From UHGV virus genome UHGV-2172388: a stretch of 32,728 nt of DNA; one strand, given 5' to 3'. How positions within the stretch are numbered: position 1 is the first letter of the stretch; the number at the start of each line of letters is the position of its first letter. The translations under genes were made by a program, and so were the position numbers. Origin of the DNA: a virus. Under the pieces are notes generated by a model. It was not told where the DNA came from, ran no database searches, and saw nothing but the letters and a program-made list of their open reading frames with translations. Shown here in pieces: positions 1,234 through 30,910 of this stretch.

Positions 1234-2214
1234 TTACTCTGAATCGTCGTCGGCAAGGCGGTACTTTTTGAAGCGAATAACCTCCAGCCCCAACCAGTCG
1301 TTCAGTTCCTTAAAGCGTTCCTGCAGCGGCTCGATCTCATTGCAGTTGAATACCTTCGCCGCTTTGATGGCATCACCAAAGCCACCGGCGTTACTCGGTA
1401 CCACGCCCATGAGCGCGGGCGGTACCCGGTGCGCGGCTAACTGGTCGTCACGGCTGACGCTTTTAATATCGGAGAAGTTATCTTTCGCCGCCACCTCGCC
1501 AATCGGGATCACCTTTACGCTGTCCGGTTTGCCGTTCGGCAGATACATCAGCAGATTGCGGAAGTTGCCGGGGCCACGGCTATTCGCCAGCGCCTCCTGT
1601 AACGCCCCAATATCCGCCTCGTTATGGGCTGGGTCGCTCAGGTAGAGGATGAAACCGGCATGACTGCCGTTCTTGTAGTAGCGACGGCGAAACAGCGTGG
1701 CGGAGTTATCCAGCCATGCCGCGTTCAGCGCAGAGAGGTATTCAGGCAGGCCGTAGATTTCCTGATTGATATCCGGCTCCAGTAGGTGGCCGATACTGCC
1801 CGACGCAAACTCATGATCCACTTTACCGGGCTGAACAAAGAAATAGCTGTCCAGCGCCTTGCCGCGCCGGACATACTTCGCCAGCGCAGGCACCAGCGTT
1901 AACGGCTGGCCCAGCCGGTTATCCTGCCGCTCCAGATAGGCATTGCCGAACACCAGATAGTCCAGCGCAAGGCGGCTGAACGCCTGCCGGGTCAACAACG
2001 TATGAGGTATGAAGGTACCAACCAGCACATTGCGCTTCACGCAGATCGGGCTGGTATGATGTGCCGAAGCGCGGAACGACAGCGCCAGCGAATTAAAATC
2101 CACCGGCGGCGCATACCATTTGCCAAAGTCTACGCACTCCAGATAGTTCAGTATTTCCCGCCTGTCCAGCAGAGCTTCGGGTTCACCGAAGGTGAAAGCC
2201 ATTGTGTTATTCAT
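1234..2214 (-). CDS. Q: Portal protein (P2 gpQ-like)
   Basis: 326-aa ORF; position and orientation as in P2; start ATG overlaps the P stop as ATGA; sequence recalled as P2 Q family. Confidence 0.85.
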   Translation of the reverse strand: MNNTMAFTFGEPEALLDRREILNYLECVDFGKWYAPPVDFNSLALSFRASAHHTSPICVKRNVLVGTFIPHTLLTRQAFSRLALDYLVFGNAYLERQDNRLGQPLTLVPALAKYVRRGKALDSYFFVQPGKVDHEFASGSIGHLLEPDINQEIYGLPEYLSALNAAWLDNSATLFRRRYYKNGSHAGFILYLSDPAHNEADIGALQEALANSRGPGNFRNLLMYLPNGKPDSVKVIPIGEVAAKDNFSDIKSVSRDDQLAAHRVPPALMGVVPSNAGGFGDAIKAAKVFNCNEIEPLQERFKELNDWLGLEVIRFKKYRLADDDSE

Positions 2215-3994
2215 CCGTACACCTTAATTAAGCCCCGCCCGCTGTTCGCGCCGCCGGAGCTTTCCAGTGGTTCATTGATAATGGCGTGCATACACGCCCA
2301 TGCCAGATCCGCGTGGGAGACTTCTTCCGAACGGCTGGCCTCGAAGGTTACCTGACGCCCGGACGGAGTCAGGGTTTTGCGGATCGCCATAAATGCCTGC
2401 GCCAGATCCGTCCATCCGGCGTCAAACTCCAGTCGGCGTTTACGGACAACGTCCAGCGTTTTCAGCACCAGACGCTGTTTCACTTCTGGGGAATAAGAGA
2501 ATGCCTGCACTGCCGGGAAGAACTGTTTCACCAGTTGATGCACGCCGTGGCCGATGCCGGTCACGTCAATACCGATGTAAGTCACGTTATAGCGCTCGGT
2601 AATTTTGCGGATATTTTCCGCCTGCGCCGCGAAGTCCATCCCGTGCCACTGGTGCTTTTCAATTACCCGAAACTTGCCGCCCTCAATGACCGGCGGCGCG
2701 ACCACCACGCATCCGGCGCTGTCGCCGCTTAACGCCGGATCGTAGCCCACCCATACCGAGCGTTCGCCGAGCGGACGCAGGGCAAACGGCTTGTAGTCGT
2801 CCCAGACTTCCCAGCTATCGACCATGCAACCCTGCAACATGCTGAGCGGGAATACCGATGCGGTATCGTCAATAAACTGGCACATAAACAGGTTGGCGAA
2901 CTCTTCCGGCGAGTTCTCCAGCCTGAGTTGCTCAAGGTCGAACAGGTCATAACCCTGATTGATGGCATCCTCAACGGTGACGATTTGCCGCCACTGGCCG
3001 TCTTCACACAACCGCCCTGCCGACAGCGCCCGATGGCTGATATCCAGTCGAATCTGTTCGCTCTTCGGCCTGCCCTTGTTGAACAGTTGCCCTGTCCAGA
3101 ACTTATAGGCTTCATGGGTGATGCTGGACGGCGTGGAGAAGTAGGTTTGCCGCCAGCGCTTCTGGCTGGCCATCCCCGCCGCGTTACGGCGCAGTTCCAG
3201 AAAGCGGTGTATCCAGAAGTATTCATCCAGATACAGGTTGCCATGATAGGTCTGGGCGGTGCGGGCATTAGTGCCGAGAAAATACATCCGGCTATCATTA
3301 TGCGGCAGGTGAATGACTTCGCCTTTCAGCTCAACATCCGCCTCACGAGCAAAATCGACAATGTACTGGCGGACTGGTGCGCCTGCGCTTTGGAAGCAGA
3401 GAGAAAGATCTGGTTGCGCCCACTTTCCACCGCATCCATAAACCCTTCCCGCCCGAAGAACATCGTCGCCCCAATCTGGCGCGACTTGTTGATATCGCGG
3501 ATACGGTGTTCCAGTCCGGCGCGGTACCAGTGTTTCTGGTGCGGATACAGCCCGTCCAGAAATAGCTGTTTCAGCTTCTCCGCCTGCTCCTCGCTGATAT
3601 GGTTGGTTTCCGGCTGTCTGCGCGGCCCGGCGTTACGCTTCGCAAGAGCAGGATTCAGGTCGACCTCATTGCCTCCCTGCTGATAGCGTTCAACCCTTGC
3701 CCCGCGCTCCATCTGCCGCCAGAGCAGGTCGATCTCCTTAAAATCCTTCCCCTCTTTATTTTCCTTCACCGTGAGCTGGATCAGACGCGCCTCGGTCACC
3801 GCCGTCACCCGCTCCAGCGGGGCGGATTCATCCCAGCCGTCGCGCCGCTTCCAGCTATGCAGCGTGGTAACTTTCACCCCCAACAGTTCGGCGATCCGCG
3901 CGATGCGAAAACCCTGCCAGTACAGATAGCGGGCTTTGCGGCGTGGATCTTCATCCTGAAGGGCAAGCAGATGTTTTTCGATGTCTGGCGGCAT
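2211..3994 (-). CDS. P: Terminase large (ATPase) subunit, P2 gpP-like, interrupted by an apparent frameshift near 3376-3392 (possible pseudogene or sequencing error)
   Basis: Two ORFs in different frames (3326..3994, 222 aa N-terminal part; 2211..3287, 358 aa nuclease part). The downstream frame stays open upstream to about 3500 and reads ...[17 protein letters not shown]... Together about 590 aa, the size of gpP. Confidence 0.8.
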
Positions 3995-4051
3995 AACGTC
4001 CTCTCGTTTCTGCCGTCAGCGTAAACAAGCCGCTGCCTGCGCGTAGCAATG

Positions 4052-4079
4052 CCGCTTGTAACCCGGATGATTACAAGCG
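4052..4079. promoter_or_regulatory. Late-promoter activator (Ogr-type) dyad CCGCTTGTA-N11-TACAAGCG upstream of O (possibly shared with divergent P-Q operon)
   Basis: Perfect dyad; centre 84 nt upstream of the O ATG; same motif recurs before X, V and FI. Confidence 0.6.
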
Positions 4080-4149
4080 AAGCCCGTTGCCTGATAGCGG
4101 AGGACTACCCGACCATTCGCTTATTTAGCCAACGCCGGGACTGAACGTT

Positions 4150-4977
4150 ATGGACAAAAAGCCAAAGAAAAAACTGCTCTCTAAATGGGTGCGTATCGCC
4201 GTAGAAGGCGCAACCTGCGACAAGCGCACTATTGAACGCCAGTGGATCGAGCAAATGGCCGATACATACAGCCCAAAAGTGTACGGCGCGCGCATTAATC
4301 TGGAGCACCTGAAAGGCATCCTGCCGGACGGCCCGTTCCAACGCTACGGCGACGTGGCGATGGTGAAGAAAGAAGAGATCGCCGAAGACGGCCCCCTGAA
4401 AGGCAAACTGGCGCTGCTGGCACGTCTGGCCCCAACGGATTCATTGGTCGAAATGAACCGCAAAGGGCAGAAGGTTTATACCTCGGTGGAAGTCGATCCG
4501 AAATTTGCCGATACAGGCAAAGCCTATCTGGTCGGGCTGGCAGTCACCGACGATCCGGCCAGTCTCGGCACCGAAATGCTCTCCTTCTGCGCCAGCGCGC
4601 AGAGCAACCCGCTGGCGGCGCGTAAGCGCTCGCCGGAGAACATTTTCAGCGTGGCAGAAGAGATTGAACTGGAGTTTGAAGAAGTGGAGGAAAGCAGCGG
4701 CGAATCGCTGTTTACCCGCATCAAGGCGCTGTTAAGTAAAAAGCAGAACCACGACGACCAGCAACGGGACGACGTGCATCTGGCGGTGGAGGAAGTAGCG
4801 ACGTTCTGTAGCGAACAGGTCGACCAAATTCGCGCTGAGCTGTCTGAACTGCAAACGCAGCATCAGCAGCTACAGGCCGATTATTCCACGCTGAAAACTC
4901 AGCTTGCAAAGCAACCGGCCACACCATCGCGCCAGCCTGCCACCGGTGGCAACACCGACCTGAAAACCGACTGTTAA
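4150..4977 (+). CDS. O: Capsid scaffolding protein (P2 gpO-like)
   Basis: 275-aa ORF, acidic/coiled-coil C-terminal half, synteny between P and N. Confidence 0.85.
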   Translation: MDKKPKKKLLSKWVRIAVEGATCDKRTIERQWIEQMADTYSPKVYGARINLEHLKGILPDGPFQRYGDVAMVKKEEIAEDGPLKGKLALLARLAPTDSLVEMNRKGQKVYTSVEVDPKFADTGKAYLVGLAVTDDPASLGTEMLSFCASAQSNPLAARKRSPENIFSVAEEIELEFEEVEESSGESLFTRIKALLSKKQNHDDQQRDDVHLAVEEVATFCSEQVDQIRAELSELQTQHQQLQADYSTLKTQLAKQPATPSRQPATGGNTDLKTDC

Positions 4978-4987
4978 GGAACCCCCG

Positions 4988-6007
4988 ATGCGTAACGAAA
5001 CCCGCTTAAAATACAACGCTTACGTTGAAACCGTCGCCGGGCTGTCCGGTGTCCAGAGCGCCGCCGTCGAATTCACGGTAGAACCTTCCGTACAGCAGAC
5101 GCTGGAAACCAAAATTCAGGCGTCCGTAGAATTCCTGACCAAAATCAACGTCCATGAAGTGGTGGATCAGGAAGGAGAAAAAGTCGGCATCGGCATTGAT
5201 CGCCCCACGGCCAGCCGCACCGATACCAGCCAGCGTGAGCGTGAACCCGTCGACCCCACGTCGATGACGACTAACCGCTACCGCTGCGAAAAAACCAACT
5301 ACGACACCGCGCTGAAATACGCCAAACTGGACGCATGGGCCGCCCACCCGGATTTTCAGATCCGCGTGCGCGACAGCATCACCCGGCGACAGGGATTAGA
5401 CCGCATCCTGATTGGCTTCAACGGTATCCTCGTTGCAGCCCAGACCGACTTCCAGCGTTACCCCCTTCTGCAGGACGTTAACAAAGGCTGGCTGCAGCAG
5501 TATCGCGACCACGCCCCGGAACGCGTCATGAACGAAGGTGTGGAAGGTTCCGGCAAAATCATCATTGGCAAAGGCGGCGACTATGAGAATCTGGACGTCA
5601 TGGTCAATGACGGCGAAGAAAACCTGATTGACGAATGGCATGTCGACGGCGCAGATCTGGTCGCCATTTGTGGCCGTGGCGTCCTGCACGACAAATACTT
5701 CCCGATACTCAACCAGCACAATGAGAACAGCGAAAAACTGGCGGGGCAGATTCTGGTCAGCCAGAAAACCATCGGCGGTCGCCCTGCCGTGCGCGTGCCG
5801 GGTTTCCCGCGCAACACCATTCTGGTCACCGCCTTCAGTAACCTGTCTATCTATGTCCAGAAAGGCACTCGCCGCCGCGCCATTATTGATAACCCCAAAC
5901 GTGACCGGGTAAAGAACTTCGAGTCCTCCAACGATGCCTTTGTGGTGGAAGACTTCGGCTGCGGTTGCCTGTTTGAGAATATCAAGTTTGAGGATAAAGA
6001 CGTATGA
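4988..6007 (+). CDS. N: Major capsid protein (P2 gpN-like)
   Basis: 339-aa ORF; N-terminus MRNETRLKYNAYVE and later motifs (GKGGDY, NLSIY) match recalled P2 gpN; RBS AAGGA upstream. Confidence 0.9.
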   Translation: MRNETRLKYNAYVETVAGLSGVQSAAVEFTVEPSVQQTLETKIQASVEFLTKINVHEVVDQEGEKVGIGIDRPTASRTDTSQREREPVDPTSMTTNRYRCEKTNYDTALKYAKLDAWAAHPDFQIRVRDSITRRQGLDRILIGFNGILVAAQTDFQRYPLLQDVNKGWLQQYRDHAPERVMNEGVEGSGKIIIGKGGDYENLDVMVNDGEENLIDEWHVDGADLVAICGRGVLHDKYFPILNQHNENSEKLAGQILVSQKTIGGRPAVRVPGFPRNTILVTAFSNLSIYVQKGTRRRAIIDNPKRDRVKNFESSNDAFVVEDFGCGCLFENIKFEDKDV

Positions 6008-6666
6008 TGACGCCTGCCCGCCGCCACCTGCTGCGCCATCAGGCGCAGGCCGCAAATCAACAGGAAAACCAGACCTACGCCAACGGCTATGAACTAATGC
6101 TGGCAAAGCTGGCAACCGATAAACGCCGCTTGAAAGCGATCCAGTCCATTGAACGCAAAATCGAGGTTAAGGGTGAACTGCTGCCCGATTACCAGCCGTG
6201 GGTAAGCGGCGTTCTGGCTGCCGACAGCCAACAGCAGGACGATGTGTTTATGACGGTGCTGCTCTGGACGCTGGATACCGGCGACTTTCCCGCTGCCTAC
6301 CCCATGGCGGAACACGCCCTGAAACACGGCTGGGTAACGCCGGATCAGTACCAGCGGCAGACCGCCTGCATGGTGGCTGAAGAAGTCGCCGACACCGCCC
6401 TGAAACAGCTTACCGCCGGTACCTTTGCGGCGCTGGACAGCCTGCTGGCCTTTGCCGGGCTGTTAGCCGATCAGGACATGCCGGATCAGGTTCGCGCTCG
6501 CCTGCACAAGGCATTGGGGCTGGCACAAAGCGAAAGCCAGCCGCAGGAGGCGCTGGCGCAGTTCCTGCGCGCACTACAACTGGATGAGAACGTCGGCGTG
6601 AAAAAGCTGATTGAGCAACTGGAGCGGCAAATTCGCAATAACCCGCCCGACCAGTCCACAGAGTGA
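6004..6666 (+). CDS. M: Terminase small (endonuclease) subunit (P2 gpM-like)
   Basis: 220-aa ORF overlapping the N stop; synteny. Confidence 0.8.
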   Translation: MMTPARRHLLRHQAQAANQQENQTYANGYELMLAKLATDKRRLKAIQSIERKIEVKGELLPDYQPWVSGVLAADSQQQDDVFMTVLLWTLDTGDFPAAYPMAEHALKHGWVTPDQYQRQTACMVAEEVADTALKQLTAGTFAALDSLLAFAGLLADQDMPDQVRARLHKALGLAQSESQPQEALAQFLRALQLDENVGVKKLIEQLERQIRNNPPDQSTE

Positions 6667-6751
6667 GACCCTCACGACCGGCGGCACGGCTGGCCGCGCG
6701 TGGTTATACCACTGCAACGCCCGCCGTCCACCGCCGAACAGGGAGAATATA

Positions 6752-7219
6752 ATGAGCTTTATTCAGGTTGCCCCCGCCGCCAGTCTGCCGGGGTTGGTTA
6801 TCAGCAACCACCCTTTCTTTCCCGATATTGATACGCAACATCTGCGTGCAACCCAACGGCTGGACAGCACCATTACCAACGAACGTCTGCGCGAGGCACT
6901 GCTGATTGCGCTGGCCAGCGTAAACGACGACCTGCGGGAATGGCGGCTGGAACAGGAAAACCGTGGCACAACTTACATTGCGGAAACCACGACCGAACGG
7001 CTGGACGGCGAAAGCGTTAACCAGCACCGCTACCGCCGCGCGGTGTACAGCCTGACGCACGCGAACCTGTTGGAACACTATCGTAACTTTGATGCCACCA
7101 CCCACGGCAGCAAACTGGCGGAACAGAAGGAAAGCATCGCTGACGATCTGGCGCGCGATGCCCGCTTCGCCGTGCGGGATATTCTGGGCAAGCCGCGCAG
7201 TACGTTTGTTCTGGTATAA
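6752..7219 (+). CDS. L: Head completion/stabilisation protein (P2 gpL-like)
   Basis: ATG at 6752 preceded by GGGAG RBS; the track ORF starts earlier at 6611 but the N-terminal extension lacks RBS context. Confidence 0.8.
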   Translation: MSFIQVAPAASLPGLVISNHPFFPDIDTQHLRATQRLDSTITNERLREALLIALASVNDDLREWRLEQENRGTTYIAETTTERLDGESVNQHRYRRAVYSLTHANLLEHYRNFDATTHGSKLAEQKESIADDLARDARFAVRDILGKPRSTFVLV

Positions 7220-7334
7220 AAAGAGTACGGATATGCGATGCGCATCACCGTATCGCCTCATCTGAACGCTGGATGCCCCTTCCCCACCAGAGTTAGTGTC
7301 TGACCCAACGAAAGAACCTACAGGGGAAAATACC

Positions 7335-7571
7335 ATGACTATTCAGGCCGCCAGAACCCGCCCAATGACCGATACCGCCCGCCGCATCAGAGACACCATA
7401 GTTAGCGTCGGCGTTCGCAGCACATGGCCGCTGAGCGATCTGGCCGACTACGCAGGTATAGAAATGGTTAACGCTGAATTTATTGTGACGCAGATGGAAC
7501 TGGCCGGTTACCTGAAGAAAACCCACTGGGGCCACTATATGTTAACCAGCGCGGGTATTGAGGCGGCATAA
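7335..7571 (+). CDS. Hypothetical small protein, possible winged-helix DNA-binding protein (accessory)
   Basis: 78-aa ORF from ATG 7335 with AGGGGAAAA upstream; not part of the P2 backbone; convergent with doc. Confidence 0.4.
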   Translation: MTIQAARTRPMTDTARRIRDTIVSVGVRSTWPLSDLADYAGIEMVNAEFIVTQMELAGYLKKTHWGHYMLTSAGIEAA

Positions 7572-7573
7572 TT

Positions 7574-7598
7574 AAAAACAGCCCGATCTGTCGGGCTG
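7574..7598 (-). terminator. Hairpin terminator between convergent genes (serves the doc transcript, possibly bidirectional)
   Basis: 8-bp stem CAGCCCGA/TCGGGCTG with 4-nt loop; A5 on the plus strand gives a T-run after the hairpin on the minus strand. Confidence 0.55.
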
Positions 7599-7603
7599 TA
7601 ACG

Positions 7604-7981
7604 TCAGGAAGCATTTACATCACTAAGGGTATAGAAAATATCGGCTAAATCATCCAGATTCAGCGTTCCCTCAGCCACATCCACCATAATATCTTCCAGC
7701 TTTTGTGTTCGCTTGAGGTTCACACCCTGCATATCAAGGTATGTCAACGCCGTCACCAGTGCCGTTCGCTTGTTGGCATCAGCAAAAACGTGCCCTCTGG
7801 CGATGGCAACCGCATAAGATGCGGCGATCTGGAAAATATCATTCATCTGCTCATACAGAATACGGTTATCCACCCGCGCCAGTGTTGCCTCGACCCGGCC
7901 AGCATCCTGATAACCAACCAATCCCGGCTCATGAGCAAGAATAAAATCGTGAATTCCAATCACCAAATGTGCATCAATCAT
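7604..7981 (-). CDS. doc: Doc-family toxin (Fic-fold kinase, death-on-curing)
   Basis: 125 aa; motif GHVFADANKRTAL matches the Doc/Fic signature HxFx(D/N)(A/G)NKR; overall layout resembles P1 Doc as recalled. Confidence 0.85.
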   Translation of the reverse strand: MIDAHLVIGIHDFILAHEPGLVGYQDAGRVEATLARVDNRILYEQMNDIFQIAASYAVAIARGHVFADANKRTALVTALTYLDMQGVNLKRTQKLEDIMVDVAEGTLNLDDLADIFYTLSDVNAS

Positions 7982-8166
7982 CGGTTAGCCAGCGCCTTAA
8001 TGACTTTGTTGTGTCTGGCATAAATACGTTCTGCCGACTTTTTAATCACACGCTCACCTTCCGGGCCGTCCAGTTTCATTTCGACGGGTACGAACTGCCC
8101 ACTCATACTGTCTCTTTTTACGACCTTGATACCGTATCGGCTGGCAGGACTGCTATTCTTCGCCAT
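7978..8166 (-). CDS. Putative Doc antitoxin, not Phd/YefM-like at the N-terminus (possibly AbrB/MazE-like), C-terminus ...NKVIKALANR
   Basis: 62-aa ORF, stop overlaps the doc start (ATGA); AGAGG RBS 10 nt upstream; C-terminal tail resembles the Doc-neutralising end of P1 Phd (...NKELVNR). Confidence 0.55.
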   Translation of the reverse strand: MAKNSSPASRYGIKVVKRDSMSGQFVPVEMKLDGPEGERVIKKSAERIYARHNKVIKALANR

Positions 8167-8212
8167 TATTTTTTACCTCTAATACTCTTTATTAAAAGTA
8201 TATACCTATCTG

Positions 8213-8392
8213 CTAATCTTTTGTTTCAATGCCTCGTGACTGAAGCTCTTTCCTGATAATTCGCTTAATCCACGCGGAAACAGAGGCATCACCATCAGCT
8301 TTAAGTGCCTGCTGAATTCCGGCCTCAAGAGCAGGATCTACTCGTAACGCGATTTGCTTACTGCCTTTGCCTTGAATAGAAATGGTTGACAC
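8213..8392 (-). CDS. Small ribbon-helix-helix-like protein (59 aa, GTG start), candidate regulator upstream of the antitoxin-doc pair
   Basis: Hand translation of the minus strand: VSTISIQGKGSKQIALRVDPALEAGIQQALKADGDASVSAWIKRIIRKELQSRGIETKD; AGGAG RBS 9 nt before GTG; below the 60-aa cutoff of the ORF track. Confidence 0.35.
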   Translation of the reverse strand: MSTISIQGKGSKQIALRVDPALEAGIQQALKADGDASVSAWIKRIIRKELQSRGIETKD

Positions 8393-8413
8393 TTGCTATA
8401 CTCCTGCTATATT
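8386..8413 (+). promoter_or_regulatory. Near-consensus sigma70 promoter TTGACA-16 nt-TATATT
   Basis: Direct reading; drives rightward toward ORFs 8527 and 8722. Confidence 0.45.
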
Positions 8414-8435
8414 TTCCTACAGTTAGTAAAGCAAG

Positions 8436-8455
8436 TGTATGACAACAGTCATACA
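8436..8455. promoter_or_regulatory. Perfect 8-4-8 palindrome TGTATGAC-AACA-GTCATACA (operator or leader hairpin)
   Basis: Direct reading; lies about 20-40 nt downstream of the -10 element. Confidence 0.45.
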
Positions 8456-8526
8456 AAAACAACGAAGCCCGCAGGTGCTACCAACACCAACGGGCCTCTG
8501 ACCACAACATTATTGAGGCTAATGCT

Positions 8527-8733
8527 ATGGCTACCGCTAATAGTAACATACGCGCACATTCAAAGCTCTACACCTTCCTGAACGCCCGTTCCAACCGCCT
8601 GCTGCGCGAGATCCAGCCATTGCGTCTGGTGTCCGTACTGGCAACAACAGAGATCGAGGCTCGCGACCTGCTGGCGGGTTTCCCGCTGGTATTTGTCTCC
8701 TGCAAGCCGCTGGAGGTGCGCCATGGTGCCTGA
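8527..8733 (+). CDS. Hypothetical protein (68 aa), accessory
   Basis: ORF with GAGG RBS; stop overlaps the next ORF start by 11 nt; no family recognised. Confidence 0.4.
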   Translation: MATANSNIRAHSKLYTFLNARSNRLLREIQPLRLVSVLATTEIEARDLLAGFPLVFVSCKPLEVRHGA

Positions 8734-9043
8734 AACCAACCTGCTTTCTTCCGAACTGGCCGATGTGATCCGCAAGCTGGATATTTCGAATCTCAACGCA
8801 GACGACACCCTGCAACTGGCCAACAGCAGCGAGGAGTGCTGCGCCGGATTGTGCCACGGCCTGCACTTTCTGGGTAAAACCTTCGTATCCTTCGCCGACA
8901 GCAACGTATTGGAGTTCTCACCGGAAAGCCTGTGCCAGTTAGGACACGGCCTGCTAGCCAGTGCACTGCTGATCCCGGCGCTGATCCAAATCCAGAAGTC
9001 CGCAGAACGGCAAATCATCAACACCGACACCGGCGAGGCATAA
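8722..9043 (+). CDS. Hypothetical protein (about 107 aa), accessory
   Basis: ATG 8722 (MVPETNLL...) overlapping the upstream ORF, suggesting translational coupling; no family recognised. Confidence 0.4.
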
Positions 9044-9058
9044 CCCCGCCAATCGCTC

Positions 9059-9087
9059 CCGCTTGTACTGCCCTCAGTTACAAGCGG
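9059..9087. promoter_or_regulatory. Late-promoter dyad CCGCTTGTA-N11-TACAAGCGG upstream of X and the lysis genes
   Basis: Perfect dyad; centre 84 nt upstream of the X ATG. Confidence 0.6.
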
Positions 9088-9156
9088 AAGCCTTCCCTTC
9101 ACTTCCCGCCCCTGTGCCACCATCCCCGCATCACCTGACGCCGCGTGGGAAACGCC

Positions 9157-9360
9157 ATGATCGTCTATAGCCTGCAAAACGAAACGCTCGACCAGATCTG
9201 CTGGCGCACCTTCGGGCGCACTGCCGGGATTGTCGAACGGCTTTACCGCGACAACCCGCGCCTGTGCGAACTGCCGCTGCGCCTGCCGCACGGTACGGCG
9301 GTGAACGTACCTGAACAGGCTTCCGCCGCCACGCGTCAACGAATCAACCTGTGGGACTGA
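9157..9360 (+). CDS. X: Tail protein X (LysM-like, P2 gpX)
   Basis: 67 aa from ATG 9157; MIVYSLQNETLDQICWRTFGRT...LPHGTAV...NLWD matches recalled gpX. Confidence 0.85.
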   Translation: MIVYSLQNETLDQICWRTFGRTAGIVERLYRDNPRLCELPLRLPHGTAVNVPEQASAATRQRINLWD

Positions 9361-9362
9361 CT

Positions 9363-9740
9363 ATGAACGAACCCGTAACCGGCACCGTCGTTGCCGCTTC
9401 CGTAAGCGCATTCTCCATTGCCACGCTGTTCCCGACGCTACAGGCTCCGGTAGTGCTAGGCGCATTGTGTGGCGCGCTGCTGCTGGTGATTTCGCAAAAA
9501 GAGATCGGCCTGTTCCTGCGCATCATTTTCTTCTGCGTGGCGTTTGTGATCGGCCTGCTGACCGCCGACCTGTTCACCGCGCTGGTCGCCGGATATCTGC
9601 CGCAGCATCTGATGGAAAAAGTCTCCCCTGGTATCGGGGCGCTGCTCTCATCGGCGCTGACCGTCAAGGCGCTGCTATGGGCCATCCGACAACTGGATAA
9701 CCCCGGTCAATTGCTCGACTTTTTAAGGGGACGCAAATGA
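9363..9740 (+). CDS. Holin (membrane protein with hydrophobic segments)
   Basis: 125 aa, strongly hydrophobic stretches; first gene of the lysis cassette. Confidence 0.65.
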   Translation: MNEPVTGTVVAASVSAFSIATLFPTLQAPVVLGALCGALLLVISQKEIGLFLRIIFFCVAFVIGLLTADLFTALVAGYLPQHLMEKVSPGIGALLSSALTVKALLWAIRQLDNPGQLLDFLRGRK

Positions 9741-10051
9741 AACTGATCCTGAGCCTTAACGCCATTATTTGCCTGCTGATTACCATCCGTCTGTTCCTCT
9801 ATCGCCGCGTTCACGGTACCACCTATCGCCCGCTGTATAGCTGGCTGGCGTGGCTGCTGATGTGCTGCACCGCATCGGTAGCGGTACTGATTTGTTTCAG
9901 CCTGTACCGCTACGTGTTTATCGCCGAAACCGCCATCAACATCGTGCTGCTGATTTGCCTGAGCGCTGCACGCGGCAATGTCGCCAGTCTGATTAAACCC
10001 TTACGTCACCACCCGAAGGAGCCACGCCATGACTCGTACACTCACCCATGA
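9737..10051 (+). CDS. Second small membrane protein of the lysis cassette (holin/antiholin-like)
   Basis: 104 aa, multiple hydrophobic helices; between holin and endolysin. Confidence 0.55.
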   Translation: MKLILSLNAIICLLITIRLFLYRRVHGTTYRPLYSWLAWLLMCCTASVAVLICFSLYRYVFIAETAINIVLLICLSAARGNVASLIKPLRHHPKEPRHDSYTHP

Positions 10052-10619
10052 TCAACAGCAGGCCGCCGCGTTGTATCTGGGTATCCCGCTGGCGGCGTTA
10101 CAGGCGGTGCAGGAGGTTGAAGCCCGTTCTCGCGGCTTCCTGCCCGATGGCCGTCCGGCCCTTCTATTTGAACGCCATATCATGTACCGCCAGTTAAGAA
10201 GCCACGGACTGGACGCCGACCGGCTGGCGCAGAATTACCCGGATTTGGTGAACAAGAGCGCAGGCGGCTATCAGGGCGGAAGCCGTGAGCACTACCGCCT
10301 GAATCTGGCGAAACAGATCCACAGCGCCGCCGCTATTGAGAGCGCAAGCTGGGGACTGTTCCAGATTATGGGCTTTCACTGGAAAGCGCTGGGCTACGCC
10401 TCTGCCGCCGACTTTGAAAAGCAGATGAACGACAGCGAGCAGATGCAGCTTGACACCTTCGTGCGCTTCGTTGAGGCCAACCCAAAGATCCACGACGCAA
10501 TAAAGGCGCAGAACTGGCCAGAGTTCGCCCGCCGCTACAACGGGCCGCAGTACAAACGCAACCAGTACGATACGAAGCTGGCGGTCGCCTTCGAAAAATT
10601 CAGTCAGGCGGCAGCATGA
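10029..10619 (+). CDS. Endolysin, N-acetylmuramidase-family
   Basis: 196 aa; motif SWGLFQIMGFHW typical of phage N-acetylmuramidase endolysins; GGAG RBS. Confidence 0.8.
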   Translation: MTRTLTHDQQQAAALYLGIPLAALQAVQEVEARSRGFLPDGRPALLFERHIMYRQLRSHGLDADRLAQNYPDLVNKSAGGYQGGSREHYRLNLAKQIHSAAAIESASWGLFQIMGFHWKALGYASAADFEKQMNDSEQMQLDTFVRFVEANPKIHDAIKAQNWPEFARRYNGPQYKRNQYDTKLAVAFEKFSQAAA

Positions 10620-11065
10620 TGAGCTGGATGAAAACCGCGCCACTGCTGTTGCTCGTCGTGATGCTGCTCTGGACGAACTGGCAGCGTATGACGCAGCAGG
10701 AACAGCTTATTGAACAACAGCAGCGCATCAGGCTGGCCGACACTGAGATTGCCAGCCTGACCGAATCCCTGATGACGAAGGTGCAGGAACTGGACGAACT
10801 CCAGCAACAGGCCGACGCCAACCAGCAGGCATACCTGACGCTGCAACAGCAAACCGCCGCCGCCCATGACCAGCTAAAGCAGCGCAACCAGCAACTGGAG
10901 AAACTGAAACGTGAAAATCAACAGCTTCGTGAATGGGCTGATACTGCTTTGCCCGCTGATATTATCCGCCTGCACCAGCACGCCACCATTACCGGCAGTG
11001 CGGCTTACCGCCAATTGCCCGAAGCTGATCCCCTGCCAGCTTCCGGCGCTTCAACCGCAGAGTAA
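10616..11065 (+). CDS. lysB: i-spanin (LysB/Rz-like)
   Basis: 149 aa; N-terminal TM segment then Q/E-rich coiled coil; ATGA overlap with the endolysin stop. Confidence 0.7.
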   Translation: MMSWMKTAPLLLLVVMLLWTNWQRMTQQEQLIEQQQRIRLADTEIASLTESLMTKVQELDELQQQADANQQAYLTLQQQTAAAHDQLKQRNQQLEKLKRENQQLREWADTALPADIIRLHQHATITGSAAYRQLPEADPLPASGASTAE

Positions 11066-11186
11066 TGAAGATTTAAGCCGCGCGCTGCTGGAAACTGAAA
11101 ACGCGTGGCACCAGTGCGCTGCGCAGGTGGATATGACGATTAGTTGTCAGGAGCGTATCGATGCACAAAGCGCAGCTCATCCGTGA
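10911..11186 (+). CDS. lysC: o-spanin lipoprotein (LysC/Rz1-like), overlapping lysB in another frame
   Basis: GTG start; signal peptide with lipobox LILSAC; Pro/Cys-rich; starts inside lysB and extends beyond it. Confidence 0.6.
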   Translation: MKINSFVNGLILLCPLILSACTSTPPLPAVRLTANCPKLIPCQLPALQPQSNEDLSRALLETENAWHQCAAQVDMTISCQERIDAQSAAHP

Positions 11187-11619
11187 ACTACTGACCGCCA
11201 GTATCCCGCACTTACAACACAACCCGGACGCGCTGCGGGTCTTTATCAATAAGGGCCGGATCGTCGCCACCGCAGGGCGCAGCACCAGTTTTGAATACCA
11301 GTACACGCTGGAACTGTTGATCACCGACTACGCCGCCGATCCCGATACGCTGATGGTGCCGCTGGTCGGCTGGATGTCGCTTCACCAGCAGGAAGCCTTC
11401 GCCAACAGCGATCTGCGCCAGCAGGCATTTCAGTTTGAAGCCGAAGCCATCGACCACCAAAGTTACGATATCAGCATCAAGCTGGCGCTGACCGAGCGCG
11501 TCATTGTGCGCCCGCGCGACGGCGGGCTGGAAGCAAAGCACTGTAACGACCAGCAGCCAGAAAGCGGTTACAATGGCTGGGAAATCGCCTGTCGCGGTGA
11601 AACGATAGTGAGTACCTGA
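11161..11619 (+). CDS. R: Tail completion protein (P2 gpR-like)
   Basis: 152-aa ORF, synteny and recalled family similarity. Confidence 0.8.
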   Translation: MHKAQLIRELLTASIPHLQHNPDALRVFINKGRIVATAGRSTSFEYQYTLELLITDYAADPDTLMVPLVGWMSLHQQEAFANSDLRQQAFQFEAEAIDHQSYDISIKLALTERVIVRPRDGGLEAKHCNDQQPESGYNGWEIACRGETIVST

Positions 11620-12068
11620 TGAGCGACGACCTGCAACAACTCCACCGCTGGGCCGATGGCCTGCTTGCAAAGCTCTCCCCGGCAAGCCGAACCCAACTGG
11701 CGCGGGAAATCGCCCACAGCCTGCGTCAGTCGCAAAGCCAGCGGATAACCGCACAGAAAAACCCGGATGGCTCACCGTTCGCCCCCCGTAAGCCTCAGCT
11801 ACGCAGTAAAAAAGGAAAGATCCGCCGCCAGATGTTCCGTAAGCTGCGTACCGCACGCTATATGAAAGGGAAAGGCGATGGGCAGGGAGCAACCATTTCG
11901 TTTCTCAGCAGCGTTCGACATATGGCCGCCGTTCATCAGTATGGCCTGCGCGATCGGGTAAATCGCTACGGGTTGGAGGTGGATTACGCACAAAGGCAGT
12001 TGCTGGGATTTTCTCAGCAAGATTATTTACAAATTCAATCTATTATCATGCAATATTTAGCGGTGTAA
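11619..12068 (+). CDS. S: Tail completion / virion morphogenesis protein (P2 gpS-like), C-terminal about 25 codons AT-rich and atypical
   Basis: 149-aa ORF; TGATG overlap with the R stop; the 3' end lies in AT-rich DNA, suggesting the native end was replaced by an insertion. Confidence 0.75.
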   Translation: MSDDLQQLHRWADGLLAKLSPASRTQLAREIAHSLRQSQSQRITAQKNPDGSPFAPRKPQLRSKKGKIRRQMFRKLRTARYMKGKGDGQGATISFLSSVRHMAAVHQYGLRDRVNRYGLEVDYAQRQLLGFSQQDYLQIQSIIMQYLAV

Positions 12069-12107
12069 TAACAAACTTTCTCATATTCAAAAGGATTACT
12101 ACCTGCC

Positions 12108-12563
12108 ATGCCTAATCAACATACTGTTGAAGAATCAACGCGAGCCGCTATCAATGAACTTTTGCGTAACGATGCTCATTTGCTGATTACAGATAATAGT
12201 GAACGGGCTATCGCCAACCGCTTGGGTAGATATCTGGAAAATAACTTCCCGGAATGGGATGTAGACTGTGAATACAATAGAAATGGGGATGCAGTTAAAA
12301 GATTAATTTACGCAGTTGAACCTAACGGAAATGCAAGCGAACGTGATGTTATCCCGGATATTATCGTTCACCACCGAGGAACCGATGAAAACCTGATTGC
12401 GTTCGAACTGAAAAAATCGACCAACAACCAAAGAAATGGCAGAGAAAAAGACCTCCTCAAGCTGCAGGCGTTTAAAGAACAATTGGGTTATAAATATGCC
12501 GTTTTTGTGTCTCTTAAAACAGGCTGTGCGAACCCTGAAGTTACCGAAATCCACTGGATTTAA
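12108..12563 (+). CDS. Moron: PD-(D/E)xK nuclease-fold-like hypothetical protein
   Basis: 151 aa in AT-rich DNA between S and V; putative motifs ...IPDIIVHH... and ...IAFELKK... read as PD and ExK; family assigned by motif only. Confidence 0.5.
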   Translation: MPNQHTVEESTRAAINELLRNDAHLLITDNSERAIANRLGRYLENNFPEWDVDCEYNRNGDAVKRLIYAVEPNGNASERDVIPDIIVHHRGTDENLIAFELKKSTNNQRNGREKDLLKLQAFKEQLGYKYAVFVSLKTGCANPEVTEIHWI

Positions 12564-12591
12564 CCGCTTGTAAAAATCCACAATACAAGCG
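12564..12591. promoter_or_regulatory. Late-promoter dyad CCGCTTGTA-N11-TACAAGCG upstream of V
   Basis: Perfect dyad starting immediately after the moron stop codon. Confidence 0.6.
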
Positions 12592-12633
12592 TTAAAGCTA
12601 CCATTGTCATGCCAGAATACCAATGATTCCGGC

Positions 12634-13233
12634 ATGAGCGACGCAAACCACCCAGCCAACCTCGCCGAACTGCACCGGCGCATAGAGAACCTGATCCGTA
12701 CCGGCACCGTTGAAGAGGTGAAGGGCGATCGAGTACGCATTCACACTGGTGAACTGACCACCAACTGGATACCATGGCTGACGCTACGCGCCGGTGATGC
12801 CCGGACGTGGTGGCGGCCATCAACAGGCGAGCAGGTGTTACTGCTCTGTTTAAGCGGAGAGTTAACCACCGCCGTGGCGCTTCCGGCCATTTACTCTGAC
12901 GCCAGCCCCGCCCCGCTGCTGGATGAACAGGTTCACCATAGCGTTTACCCCGATGGTGCGGTGATTGAATACGATCCGCGCTCCAGCGCGTTAAAAGCGA
13001 CCGGCATCAAAACCGCACTGGTCGAAGCCAGCACCCGCGTCACGCTGGATACACCGCTCGTCGTCTGCACTCAGCATCTGGAAACCGCCACGCTGTCGGT
13101 TAAAAAAGGCGGCACGCTTAAAGGCGCTTACACCCACAGCGGCGGCAGCTTTACCTCTAACGGCGTCACCGTCCATACCCATACGCATACAGGCGTGGAG
13201 CGCGGGGGTAGCAATACCGGAGGACCGCAGTAA
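12634..13233 (+). CDS. V: Baseplate spike/assembly protein (P2 gpV-like)
   Basis: ATG 12634 (MSDANHPANLAELHRRI...) preferred over the track's TTG at 12604; motifs VIEYDP, KATGIKTA, TRVTLDTP, HTHTH match recalled gpV. Confidence 0.85.
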   Translation: MSDANHPANLAELHRRIENLIRTGTVEEVKGDRVRIHTGELTTNWIPWLTLRAGDARTWWRPSTGEQVLLLCLSGELTTAVALPAIYSDASPAPLLDEQVHHSVYPDGAVIEYDPRSSALKATGIKTALVEASTRVTLDTPLVVCTQHLETATLSVKKGGTLKGAYTHSGGSFTSNGVTVHTHTHTGVERGGSNTGGPQ

Positions 13234-13583
13234 TGTACCTCGGTATGAACGCCGAAACCGGCAGAGCATTAAGCGATGAGTTGCACATTAAGCAATCCGT
13301 AAAAGACATTCTGACCACACCAGTAGGTACGCGCGTGATGCGCCGCGATTATGGCTCACTGGTCGGCAACCTGATCGACCAGCCCAACGATGGCGCTACC
13401 CGGCTACGGGTGATGTCGGCGGTGGTCATGGCGCTGACGCGCTGGGAACCTCGCATCGAGATTATCGGCGTGGACTTTGCTGCGGATAATGCCGATCTCA
13501 GCGTCACCATTGAAGCCGAACGTACCGATATCCCCGGCCAGCCGTGGACATTCTCCATTCCGATCGACAGGAGACGTTCATGA
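13233..13583 (+). CDS. W: Baseplate protein (P2 gpW-like, GPW/gp25 family)
   Basis: 116 aa; 1-nt overlap with the V stop; synteny. Confidence 0.85.
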   Translation: MYLGMNAETGRALSDELHIKQSVKDILTTPVGTRVMRRDYGSLVGNLIDQPNDGATRLRVMSAVVMALTRWEPRIEIIGVDFAADNADLSVTIEAERTDIPGQPWTFSIPIDRRRS

Positions 13584-14491
13584 GCGCGCTGACCGATTTA
13601 AGCCAGTTACCCATCCCCAATGTGGTGGAAACGCTCGATTTTGAAACCCTATTCACCGCCCGCAAGCAGCGCTTTATCAGCCTGTATCCTGCCGAACAGC
13701 AAGCAGAAGTTACCCGCACGCTGGGCTATGAATCAGAACCCTTCGTCAAGCTGTTGCAGGAAAATACTTACTTAGAGATGGCGCTGCGGGTACGCATCAA
13801 TGAAGCCGCCGTCGCCAATATGCTGGCCCATGCCGTCAGGCACGATCTGGATAATCTGGTCGCTAACTTTAAGGTTTTTCGCCTGCAAATCTCGCCCGGA
13901 GACAGTACGGCGATACCGCCCGTTGATCCGGTTTATGAATCCGACAGCGATTTACGAATGCGCGCACAGCAGGCGTTTGAAGGACTGTCCGTCGCAGGCC
14001 CGACCGCCGCCTACGAATATCACGCCCGCAGCGCAGACGGGCGTATCGCCGACGTCTCCGCTATCAGCCCCTATCCCTGTTACGTCACCGTGTCGGTACT
14101 CTCCCGCGAAGGCAACGGGCTGGCCAGCGCAGAGTTGCTGGCGATCGTCGATACCGCCCTGAACGATATTGATATTCGTCCGGTAGGCGATCGCCCAACC
14201 ATTCAGTCCGCTGAAGTGATCCCGTATCAGATTGATGCCGTACTTTATTGCTATCCCGGCCCGGAGCAGGAACCCATTCGGCAGGCCGCCGAGCAGCGGC
14301 TAAAAAGCTACGTCAATGACCAGCATCGAATCGGGCGCGATATTCGCCGTAGCGCGATTTACGCCGCGCTGCATGTCACCGGCGTTCAGCGCGTAGAACT
14401 GCTCTCCCCTGCCGTTGACGTCATCATCAGCAAAACGCAGGCCAGTTACTGTACCGGATGGCAAATTGCCATCGGGGGAAGCGATGAATAG
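13580..14491 (+). CDS. J: Baseplate protein (P2 gpJ-like)
   Basis: About 303 aa from ATG 13580, overlapping the W stop. Confidence 0.85.
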   Translation: MSALTDLSQLPIPNVVETLDFETLFTARKQRFISLYPAEQQAEVTRTLGYESEPFVKLLQENTYLEMALRVRINEAAVANMLAHAVRHDLDNLVANFKVFRLQISPGDSTAIPPVDPVYESDSDLRMRAQQAFEGLSVAGPTAAYEYHARSADGRIADVSAISPYPCYVTVSVLSREGNGLASAELLAIVDTALNDIDIRPVGDRPTIQSAEVIPYQIDAVLYCYPGPEQEPIRQAAEQRLKSYVNDQHRIGRDIRRSAIYAALHVTGVQRVELLSPAVDVIISKTQASYCTGWQIAIGGSDE

Positions 14492-15098
14492 CTCCCTGCT
14501 CCCCAACAATGCCAGCTCGCTGGAGCAGAATCTGGCGCAAACAGGTAGCCTGACTGAACGAGTGCCGGTTCCGCTGCGTAGCCTGTGGCAACCGGATAAC
14601 TGCCCCGCCGCGCTGTTGCCTTATCTGGCATGGGCGTTTTCCGTTGACCGCTGGGATGAAAACTGGCCAGCCGATACCAAGCGGCAGGTGATTGCCGCTT
14701 CTTTCTACATCCATCAACACAAAGGCACCATCGGCGCACTACAGCGTGCGGTGGAGCCGCTCGGTTTCCTTATCCGGGTAACCGAATGGTGGCAACTGCG
14801 CCCGGAAGGTATTCCCGGCACCTTCGCGCTGGAAGTCGGCGTGCGCGAACAGGGCATCACCGAGCAGATGTATGTAGAGCTGGAGCGCCTGATCGATGAT
14901 GCAAAACCCTGTTCACGCCACTTAATCGGACTGGCGATCAGCCTGCAGAGCAACGGATACGTCTGGTTCACCGCGACGAACTATACCGGCGATACGCTCA
15001 CCGTTTATCCCTTTATTCCTGAACATGTATACAGCGTGGGCCGTAACTACCGTGGGGCTGCGCTGCATCTGATTGATACGCTAAGGATCGCCCCATGA
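14484..15098 (+). CDS. I: Baseplate protein (P2 gpI-like)
   Basis: ATG 14484 ([15 protein letters not shown]...); [30 protein letters not shown] match recalled gpI. Confidence 0.85.
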
Positions 15099-16606
15099 GC
15101 GCTACCTATTTCACGCTATTAACCACTACCGGCGAATCCGCGCTGGCGACCGCCACCGCACAGGGTTCGCCTCTTCATCTGACGCAAATGGCCGTTGGTG
15201 ACGGAAATGGTAACCTGCCAACGCCGGATACCGGCCAAACCCGGTTAGTCAACGAACGCCGACGTGCGCCGCTGAATACGCTCAGTATTGACCCTAACAA
15301 CCCCAACCAGATTATTGCCGAACAGGTATTGCCGGAGGACGTAGGCGGATGGTGGATCAGGGAAATTGGCCTGTACGACGAGCACGACCGGCTGATTGCC
15401 GTCGGCAACTGCCCGCCAACCTACAAGCCGCAGTTAATCGAAGGTTCGGGCCGCACACAGATTATCCGCATGGTGCTGATTGTCTCCCATACGGAAAACG
15501 TGGAACTGAAAATCGACCCTGCCGTGGTGCTGGCAACAAGACAGTATGTGGATGAAGGCCTATCCCGCCACGCGCAGTCCCGTAACCATCCTGACGCCAC
15601 CTTAACCGCCAAAGGATTTGCCCAATTAAGCAGCGCGACCAACAGCATCAGCGAAACACTGGCCGCCACGCCCAAAGCGATGAAAGCAGCCTACGATCTG
15701 GCTAATGGAAAATATACCGAACAGGATGCCACCACAGCGCGCAAAGGGGTTGTCCAGCTTAGCAGCGAAACCAACAGCACCAGCGAAACGCTCGCCGCCA
15801 CGCCCAAAGCGGTGAAAGCGGCCTACGATCTGGCTAATGGAAAATATACCGAGCAGGATGCCACCACGACGCGCAAAGGGGTTGCCCAGCTTAGTAGCGC
15901 CATCGACAGCACCAGCGAAACGCTGGCCGCCACGCCTAAAGCGGTAAAAGCGGCAGTAGACAAAGCGCTGGCGGCGGAAACCTGTCCGGTCGGCGCGCCG
16001 ATACCGTGGTCATCCGATGCCATCCCCAGCGGCTACGCCCTGATGGTCGGTCAGTCCTTCAATAAAACCTCCTACCCTAAGCTGGCAATCGCTTACCCCT
16101 CCGGTGTAATCCCGGATATGCGCGGCTGGACAATCAAGGGGAAACCCGCCAGCGGACGCACGATACTGTCTCAGGAGCAGGATGGCATTAAATCGCATGG
16201 TCACACCGCCAGCGCCACTAACACGGATTTAGGTACTAAAACCGCCAGTTCCACCGATTTGGGTACCAAAAATACCAGCGCGTTTGACTACGGGACAAAA
16301 TCGACCAATACCACCGGCGCGCACAACCACCAAATTCCGACTGACGGCATAAAAACAGGGAAGAATATGGCGTCAGTGGTGGGTTCTGATAATAGCGATG
16401 AAGATTTCAGGGACGTGACAAGTACCAATGGCAACCACGCCCACACCGTTGCTATCGGCGCACATACCCATTCGCTGGCTATCGGCGCACATAACCACAC
16501 CGTCGTCTTAGGTTCCCACAGCCACACTATTACGGTGAATGCCGCCGGGAACGCCGAAAACACCGTTAAAAATATCGCTTTCAACTATATCGTGAGGCTG
16601 GCATGA
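15095..16606 (+). CDS. H: Tail fiber protein (P2 gpH-like) with internal tandem repeats and His-rich C-terminal domain
   Basis: 503 aa; conserved N-terminus; three ~44-aa repeats; C-terminal HxH-rich tract ([29 protein letters not shown]). Confidence 0.9.
15611..15955 (+). repeat. Coding tandem repeat, 132-nt unit, 2.6 copies, inside tail fiber gene H
   Basis: Units start at 15611, 15743, 15875; protein repeat ...KG(V/F)[37 protein letters not shown]. Confidence 0.85.
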
Positions 16607-17310
16607 GCACATTCGCATTTTCCGACGAACCGCAAACCCTGCGCATCTTTAACTACGCGGCAGACACTCAGGAATTTATCGGCGTCAGCGACGCCTATAT
16701 CGCCCCCAACACCGGCTTACCGGAATGCTGTACCACTATCGAGCCTCCCGAATGCCAGAGCGGCTTTGCCCTGACATTCAACGGAGAAACATGGCTTGCG
16801 GTAGAAGATCATCGCGGTAAAACCGCGTTTGATACCGATGCGGGCAGTGAGGTACAGCTTCATCATCTGGGGCCATTGCCGGATAACGTCACTCTGCTGA
16901 AGCCCGATAACGCCTTTGTCCGTTGGGACGGCAAACGCTGGCGGCCCGATATCGAAAAAGCCCGACAGGCAAAGGTGGCAGAAATAAAGCAGTATCGAGA
17001 TCGAATCACCGCCGACTACATCATCATCGATAATCACCATTTCCACAGCGACGCTAACAGCCGCATCCAGCAGCTCTCGCTCACCAAAATGGGCGTGGCT
17101 AAACAAATACCGGCAGGCTTAATGTGGCAGACCAAAAATCACAACCTGATTGAACTGACCAACGAAATCGCCGCCCGGTTTGAAACCGAAACAATGGCGC
17201 ACGATATGCGCCTGTTCGCCGCTGCCCAGCAGCATATTGCCGCCATTGAAGCATTGACGGAGGTGCAGGCGGTTATGGGTTACGACTACTCGTCAGGATG
17301 GCAACCATGA
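16603..17310 (+). CDS. G: Tail fiber assembly chaperone (P2 gpG-like)
   Basis: 235 aa directly after H with ATGA overlap; synteny. Confidence 0.8.
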
Positions 17311-18520: not shown

Positions 18521-18523
18521 AAA

Positions 18524-18562
18524 CCGCTTCTGCTTGTAGTGCCTGTGGTTACAAGTGGAAGC
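18524..18562. promoter_or_regulatory. Late-promoter dyad, degenerate copy (CTTGTA-N11-TACAAG core) upstream of FI
   Basis: Core TGT-N13-ACA spacing identical to the other three sites; centre 83 nt upstream of the FI ATG. Confidence 0.5.
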
Positions 18563-18626
18563 GATCTTACATCCCCCCGCCATCGTGCCACCATCGTCAT
18601 TTATTGACCTGATGGAGGCTCGCCCT

Positions 18627-27891: not shown

Positions 27892-27909
27892 TGTTTCAGT
27901 TAGTTAAAA

Positions 27910-30901: not shown

Positions 30902-30910
30902 GGAAATGTT

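Follow-up and report, generated by a model that had tools for sequence, protein, structure and literature searches.

Four palindromes in the late region of a P2-like prophage of Edwardsiella are very probably the activator-binding sites of its late promoters. They were found in the window, by which we mean the whole 32,728-nucleotide stretch of DNA analyzed here (virus genome UHGV-2172388). All four are intergenic and lie upstream of the late genes O, X, V, and FI, in the P/O, L-X, S-V, and G-FI gaps, respectively. The dyads are as follows.

4052–4079, center 4066, core match 4055–4077: dyad 1, in the P/O gap, CCGCTTGTAACCCGGATGATTACAAGCG
9059–9087, center 9073, core match 9062–9084: dyad 2, before X, CCGCTTGTACTGCCCTCAGTTACAAGCGG
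12564–12591, center 12578, core match 12567–12589: dyad 3, before V, CCGCTTGTAAAAATCCACAATACAAGCG
18524–18563, center 18544, core match 18533–18555: dyad 4, before FI, CCGCTTCTGCTTGTAGTGCCTGTGGTTACAAGTGGAAGCG

The core CTTGTA-N11-TACAAG has four exact matches in the window; dinucleotide shuffles averaged 0.04 matches and never gave more than 2. The initial annotation had described the same dyad upstream of O, X, V, and FI, and four exact cores, far above the level of the shuffles, confirm this. It had also called the FI copy degenerate, which does not hold: the 6+6 core is exact, and the deviation is confined to the outer flanks, which read CTG/GTG instead of CCG/GCG in a longer imperfect palindrome with long arms. 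The end of this site, previously given as 18562, was one base short, as the palindrome ends at 18563. The dyads at O, X, and V share the longer form CCGCTTGTA...TACAAGCG.

The distance from dyad center to ATG is 84 nt for O (ATG 4150), 84 nt for X (ATG 9157), 56 nt for V (ATG 12634), and 83 nt for FI (ATG 18627), in agreement with the earlier count of three centers at 83–84 nt. The dyad at 4066 sits in a 155-nt gap between O and the divergent gene P (ATG 3994, minus strand), with 72 nt separating its center from the P ATG.

A search for further copies, proposed in the initial annotation with the leftward P-Q operon as an example, was run over the window and returned none; at one mismatch, there is no fifth CTTGTA-N11-TACAAG in the whole window, and the five extra matches obtained at three mismatches are at chance level. 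We also scored the window with a symmetrised half-site weight matrix. The four dyads scored 27–32 bits with a matrix trained on sites of the window and its close relatives, and thus including these same four, the next position scored 10.7, and the best of 30 shuffled windows scored 16.0, so that the scores are bimodal. A repeat of the form CTTGTTT-N13-AAACGAG at about 4003–4029 was considered as a second dyad for P-Q and rejected, having the wrong spacing and overlapping the P ribosome-binding site. A second candidate, TGTAATGTTAATAACCACA at 27656–27674, has the TGT-N13-ACA core only, and its matrix score falls outside the top 14. It lies in the early control region, with an early promoter-like TTGACA (27630) on one side and the first early gene on the other, and is probably part of the operator/promoter region rather than an Ogr site.

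The prophage and its Ogr homolog

The element is a P2-like (Peduoviridae) prophage of Edwardsiella. Gene identities were assigned by homology to P2 genes and with Pfam. The translations give the P2 gene order, with Q and P leftward, followed by O, N, M, L ... X, two holin-family genes, a muramidase ... R, S ... V, W, J, I, H, G ... FI, FII, E, T, U, and D. Pfam matches were found for tail protein X, the holins, the muramidase, an Ogr_Delta zinc finger, an HTH repressor, a Toprim primase, and a tyrosine integrase. Rfam and tRNA scans gave no matches. Among genomes, Edwardsiella ictaluri ATCC 33202 is the closest match (91% identity in V), and five IMG/VR prophage contigs carry V at 91–99% identity in four cases and 81% in the fifth. 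A near-identity DNA search against isolated phages returned just a 221-nt, 76% match to a Yersinia phage, and there is therefore no close sequenced phage. The sheath protein is about 70% identical to those of Ralstonia and Yersinia P2-like phages.

The candidate activator gene is the following.

27928–28158, plus strand: ogr homolog, 76 aa, Pfam PF04606 (Ogr_Delta), E 1e-19, 70.6 bits against a cut-off of 26.3

The protein is 42% identical to P2 Ogr across 53 aa, and a CX2C-X22-CX4C arrangement can be read from the translation; this spacing is quoted for the Ogr/Delta family (PMC3931495). The PF04606 match and the identity to P2 Ogr support the earlier statement that the element encodes an Ogr homolog. 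The gene is the second of a rightward early operon (27685–28158, plus strand), 36 nt after a 68-aa RHH-like gene (27685–27891), and the operon lies directly downstream of the repressor and early-promoter region. In P2, ogr follows D and has its own promoter, and in phage 186 the activator B, located where the late region ends, is driven by pB, a promoter repressed by CI. A position in the early operon, not after gene D as in P2 and 186, implies a different timing control of the activator.

Several other parts of the element were recorded. The terminase large-subunit gene P (2211–3994, minus strand) is split into ORFs of 222 and 358 aa, while relatives have an intact 595-aa ORF. The split comes from a single missing base near 3373, where relatives read CCAGTTCCGCC and the window reads CCAGTCCGCC, and this deletion is either the mark of a defective prophage or a sequencing error. 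Since P carries this 1-nt deletion, the prophage may be defective, and the late promoters here may have lost selection. Following D is a two-gene module at 30–40% GC (25151–27237, minus strand). It encodes a RelA/SpoT-domain protein of 333 aa (PF04607, E 2e-18; PADLOC candidate PDC-S33) and a 362-aa homolog of the 37-kD nucleoid-associated protein (PF04245), and is possibly defense or cargo of the toxic small alarmone synthetase type. In the arm for replication and integration (28247–32728), which is not P2-like, an 884-aa Toprim primase-type protein replaces the P2 A nickase. A DUF7673 gene also lies there, as does an integrase of the P4 type that has an arm-binding domain and starts exactly at the end of the window.

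Predicted promoters and comparison with P2 and 186

A sigma-70 consensus scan of 3900–19000 found no promoter-like site at any of the four dyads. The lack of a −35 element or sigma-70 match is expected, because such promoters would be activator-dependent. We aligned the regions on their dyad centers and assigned the following −10-like blocks by eye, from position and conservation only.

4111–4116, plus strand: putative PO −10, GACCAT, +45 to +50 from the center, predicted start about 4122–4123
9115–9123, plus strand: putative PX extended −10, TGcCACCAT, +42 to +50 (hexamer 9118–9123, +45 to +50)
12622–12627, plus strand: putative PV −10, AATGAT, +44 to +49
18586–18594, plus strand: putative PF extended −10, TGcCACCAT, +42 to +50 (hexamer 18589–18594, +45 to +50)
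4018–4023, minus strand: putative PP −10, TACGCT, 43 to 48 nt from the center, predicted start about 4010–4011

A NACCAT block occurs at the same offset in PO, PX, and PF, and GTGCCACCATC is identical in PX and PF at offset 41–51 in both. These blocks would place the starts 55–57 nt from the centers, as in P2. The PV block would put the start at or next to the V ATG and predicts a leaderless V mRNA, as annotated for P2. For PV, we had also considered TACCAT at 12599–12604, which was rejected as it is absent in all six relatives, whereas CCAATGATTCCGGCATG, the block containing AATGAT, is conserved. The predicted P leader is short, with 16–17 nt from the predicted start to the P ATG, and this counts against the late-promoter reading.

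The P2 record annotates the activator-binding sites listed here with their mapped starts, in P2 coordinates.

3057–3087, center 3072: shared pO/pP site, with starts at 3016 (minus strand) and 3127 (plus strand), 56 and 55 nt off; ATGs of O at 3167 and P at 2993
10239–10266, center 10252.5: pV site, with the start at 10308, which is the V ATG (10308), 55.5 nt off
17555–17583, center 17569: pF site, with starts at 17626–17628, 57–59 nt off; FI ATG at 17652, 83 nt off

The dyad positions are the same as in the window, and in both elements a single site is common to the divergent P and O. The V site center lies 55.5 nt before the V ATG in P2 and 56 nt in the window, and the F site center lies 83 nt before the FI ATG in both. 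The V distance of 56 nt, odd among the four, thus probably corresponds to P2, where the ATG of V is also the first base of its message. Like the window, P2 combines a TGT...ACA dyad core with the lack of a −35 and with a cognate CX2C-X22-CX4C zinc-finger activator. P2 Ogr is known to recruit host RNA polymerase via the alpha subunit. The late-promoter reading offered initially is upheld by this comparison, as the window sites stand where the P2 record annotates activator-binding sites, at the same distances.

The 186 record follows the same overall logic: the divergent p12/pV pair has a single annotated B-protein site, and a further one precedes the sheath gene. Since the divergent promoters have just one annotated site between them in both P2 and 186, no separate P-Q copy is expected in the window. 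Neither phage has a promoter before X: in P2, L and X abut and there is no site between them, and in 186 the X homolog orf23 abuts Q, whereas the window has a dyad at this place. The sites of the 186 late promoters (p12, pV, p32, and pJ; activator B) read GTTGTG-N9-TCCA, unlike those of the window. The P2 sites are also imperfect (GTTGTG-N..-CCA, that is, TGT-N12-(A/C)CA), whereas the window half-sites are perfect 6–9 nt palindromes with N13. Stenotrophomonas phage Smp131 has predicted TGT-N12-ACA-like sites, including one reported site 19 nt long, and uses one site on both strands for its P'/O' pair, as in the window; its operon membership is rearranged with no X promoter, and, as here, the prediction is from sequence only (PMC3931495).

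Conservation and spacing of the dyad

We compared the window with six relatives in which V is 81–99% identical (loci L122–L126 and L202). The dyad is present in every orthologous region available, at O in 4/4, X in 5/5, V in 6/6, and FI in 3/3, or 22/22 with the window's own four. Across these relatives, the only change in the six-base arms is a single T-to-C substitution in L126. The spacers are variable, with 4 of 11 positions differing at O and wholly unrelated spacers at V. Upstream of the V dyad, there are five unrelated sequence versions among the six relatives (L125 and L202 share one). A pattern in which the arms keep their sequence, the spacers drift freely, and compensatory changes are missing is characteristic of a DNA site bound by protein and not of a helix formed in RNA.

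The predicted −10 blocks were also followed in the relatives. The PV block CCAATGATTCCGGCATG is exact in 2/6 and carries one substitution, which varies by sequence, in the other 4/6. The PP block GTTTACGCTGACGGCAGAAACG is conserved in four relatives, and the PX dyad and −10 are conserved in five, where the −10 reads CACTAT against CACCAT in the window. At FI, the 22 nt that separate dyad and −10 are not the same in the window as in the relatives, while GTGCCACCATCGTCATTTATTGACC is kept. At V, the 30 nt between dyad and −10 are replaced in the window relative to the relatives; the V promoter of the window differs from the dyad to the −10, as if cargo and promoter had been swapped together. The V dyad of L122, a 99%-identical relative, reads CTTGTA-N10-TACAAG at 9760–9790, which is TGT-N12-ACA with a spacer one base shorter. 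Its right half-site and −10 keep register, and this is a natural N12/N13 variant within one clade.

The initial annotation had equated the dyad with the TGT...ACA element of P2-family late promoters. This stands for the TGT/ACA core, which is found at all four dyads, and does not stand for the spacing, which is TGT-N13-ACA and not the N12 quoted for E. coli phages. The consensus for late sites of E. coli phages is given as TGT-N12-ACA in a passage of PMC3931495, and the sites annotated in the P2 and 186 records, GTTGTG...CCA or TGT-N12-(A/C)CA, agree with that quoted consensus. To place the N13 form, we surveyed 160 loci anchored on V homologs in viral contigs and genomes (Shewanella, Providencia, Pseudomonas, Halomonas, Kushneria, Comamonas, and others), counting the loci with each motif in the 170 nt before a named gene.

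O: 98 loci, TGT-N13-ACA in 68, TGT-N12-ACA in 5
V: 159 loci, TGT-N13-ACA in 89, TGT-N12-ACA in 5
FI: 102 loci, TGT-N13-ACA in 60, TGT-N12-ACA in 5
N (internal gene): 103 loci, TGT-N13-ACA in 2, TGT-N12-ACA in 5
S (internal gene): 121 loci, TGT-N13-ACA in 0, TGT-N12-ACA in 0
L (internal gene): 112 loci, TGT-N13-ACA in 0, TGT-N12-ACA in 0

Of the 185 distinct N13 sites, 84% have an A at +3 and 84% a T at +15, both of them positions outside the search pattern, and the consensus of these sites is yTGTA-N11-TACAa. As N13 is frequent in the survey loci, it is not peculiar to the window element, and it appears to be the commoner site form outside E. coli phages. A literature search for "TGT-N13-ACA" found no paper using it. 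P2-like prophages of Pseudomonas, Halomonas, Kushneria, Salinicola, and others have the same N13 spacing and yTGTA...TACAa half-sites before O, V, and FI as unannotated predictions. These loci differ from the window in having no dyad before X, and their V-site centers lie mostly 36–39 nt from the V start, which is only roughly estimated in these loci, against 56 in the window. Other lineages, such as a Shewanella group, carry different sequences at the dyad position. When the bare dyad pattern (14 specified bases) was searched against viral contigs, the matches listed were mostly isolated ones.

Two other readings of the palindromes were weighed against activator binding. If they acted in RNA, as transcript-end hairpins (terminators, 3' stabilizers, or processing sites) that close the upstream operons, one would expect their location at operon ends, their four stable folds (−10.8 to −22.2 kcal/mol, z −3.0 to −5.5), and the arms of at least 13 nt at X and FI. 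Set against this, the loop has a constant length of 11 nt, no Rfam family matches, and the arms are conserved as sequence rather than by compensation: the same 6-nt arms recur at four unlinked sites and at 13 distinct sites of relatives, and yTGTA/TACAa recurs in the 185 sites of other genera. Moreover, the dyad at 4066 is upstream of both predicted divergent starts and so would not be transcribed. We therefore consider a role in RNA very unlikely. An intrinsic terminator in particular was rejected, since the stable hairpin has an 11-nt loop, no T run (no U tract) follows any dyad, and the terminator scan does not report them. Palindromes are also typical of many dimeric regulators, and another protein of the element or host could bind them, such as the HTH repressor (27269–27604) or the RHH-like 68-aa protein (27685–27891). 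However, the immunity and early-promoter region (27605–27684), where the repressor should act, has no dyad, and this makes a different binding protein unlikely. All copies instead precede late structural or lysis operons, and both the TGT...ACA core and its position match the Ogr/B/Delta sites annotated in P2 and 186. Taken together, these points leave binding by another regulator hardly credible.

The site before X and cargo at the operon boundaries

Judged from the sequences compared, the X site has no equivalent in P2 or 186 and is clade-specific. In the survey, L and X are separated by 20 nt or less in 100 of the 110 sampled loci having both genes. TGT-N13-ACA was found before X in 6 of 117 loci, five of them the Edwardsiella relatives and the sixth with the motif at an implausible distance. 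The L-X gap measures 1937 nt in the window. Two relatives have gaps of 2139 and 2889 nt, and in three others the gap is just 109 nt long and consists essentially of the predicted promoter. In the window and the two relatives with long gaps, an insertion of 1.9–2.9 kb of differing DNA extends from the L stop to about 12 nt short of the X dyad. Because the X dyad is present in the relatives with only a 109-nt gap, the putative X promoter predates the cargo.

The cargo of the window falls into three slots, laid out below.

7220–9050: L-X cargo slot, ending before the X dyad, GC 44–52% against about 58%
7296–7571, plus strand: 91-aa ORF in the L-X slot, convergent with the Fic/Doc gene
7604–7981, minus strand: Fic/Doc gene (PF02661) in the L-X slot
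8386–8413, plus strand: near-consensus sigma-70 promoter in the L-X slot, TTGACA-16-TATATT with TG
8527–8733 and 8693–9043, plus strand: two small ORFs, downstream of the 8386–8413 promoter
12069–12563: S-V cargo slot, at the P2 orf30 position, adjoining the V dyad
12108–12563, plus strand: PD-Lambda-3_A-like gene, 151 aa, PADLOC PDLC03986 (E 1.3e-38, full length), GC 39.5%
17311–18523: G-FI cargo slot, at the P2 Z/fun position, ending at the FI dyad
17298–17765, plus strand: 155-aa ORF in the G-FI slot, no family match
17762–18520, plus strand: Dam-type N6-adenine methyltransferase, PF02086 (E 2e-28), PADLOC MTase_II (E 4e-114)

The insertions had been described as sitting immediately upstream of the X and V promoters, at operon boundaries. 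This is correct for the L-X and S-V slots and extends to G-FI. The G-FI cargo genes are on the late-gene strand and end 3 nt before the FI palindrome. The gene at 12108–12563 is likely anti-phage cargo; when we looked at the context of this PD-Lambda-3-like gene in other viral contigs, we found just two distant homologs, in unrelated contexts. A terminator-like hairpin at 7578–7599 is common to the 91-aa ORF and the Fic/Doc gene. A 2026 survey of P2-like prophages reports a defense hotspot "downstream of GpL", occupied in prophages of E. coli, Klebsiella, and Salmonella (PMC13586616), and thus the L-X cargo as such is not new.

Is the X copy a working promoter? It could instead be a decoy or remnant among the activator sites, such as a fragment of PF left by duplication, or an anchor for the recombination that exchanges cargo. 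P2, 186, and the 100 of 110 loci in which L and X are contiguous do without a promoter here. PX and PF are also the most alike pair of promoters, with 26/35 identities around the dyad and 26/44 downstream against 9–20/44 in other pairs; this likeness may reflect a copied segment, with which a remnant would be compatible, or a shared optimum. Yet the core at X is exact, its center-to-ATG distance is 84 nt as at O, the TGcCACCAT block stands at the offset seen in PF, and dyad and −10 are kept in five relatives, with the CACCAT-to-CACTAT change going towards consensus. Furthermore, the convergent Fic/Doc gene and the hairpin at 7578–7599 separate L from X, so that X and the lysis genes would need a promoter of their own. 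On balance, we think it improbable that the X copy is non-working.

We therefore return to the reading of all four dyads as late-promoter activator sites and propose the following mechanism. The Ogr homolog (27928–28158) would bind each CTTGTA-N11-TACAAG dyad, and the geometry predicts a transcription start about 55–57 nt downstream of each dyad, served by a weak −10 (NACCAT or AATGAT) but by no −35. Once bound, the homolog would recruit host RNA polymerase via the alpha subunit, in analogy to P2 Ogr, 186 B, and P4 Delta. The dyad at 4066 would serve both the leftward P-Q promoter PP and the rightward PO. The dyad at 9073 would form an additional promoter, through which the single O-to-S operon of the P2 type becomes two, O-N-M-L and X-lysis-R-S, and the predicted output of PX is X, the two holin-family genes, and the muramidase, continuing through S. 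The dyad at 12578 would drive a V transcript beginning at the V ATG or 1–2 bases from it, and the dyad at 18544 (PF) would drive the FI tail operon. If each late operon is transcribed afresh from an activator-dependent promoter of its own, foreign genes can enter the DNA immediately before a dyad and cause no polar damage. All three cargo blocks are found in such places, where insertion would be tolerated.

A broader scenario is offered tentatively, as one we find possible but somewhat short of an even chance. The Edwardsiella clade may have gained PX as a fifth Ogr-dependent promoter, possibly as a copy of PF, with which it shares 13-nt arms, TGcCACCAT, and the same offset. PX would then have freed X, the lysis genes, R, and S from PO read-through and opened an L-X cargo slot that now holds different accessory genes in different strains. 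Under the same scenario, restart promoters would define where P2-like phages carry defense cargo, and the N12 and N13 forms may co-vary with the Ogr lineage.

What goes beyond the textbook picture of P2 late control is only the perfect N13 palindromes and the putative clade-specific fifth promoter before X, and both leave the known mechanism unchanged. The predicted sites provide an operon map for this prophage, with PP/PO, PX, PV, and PF. They would also explain the placement of the Fic/Doc block, the PD-Lambda-3-like gene, and the Dam methylase block, each of which lies just upstream of a restart promoter.
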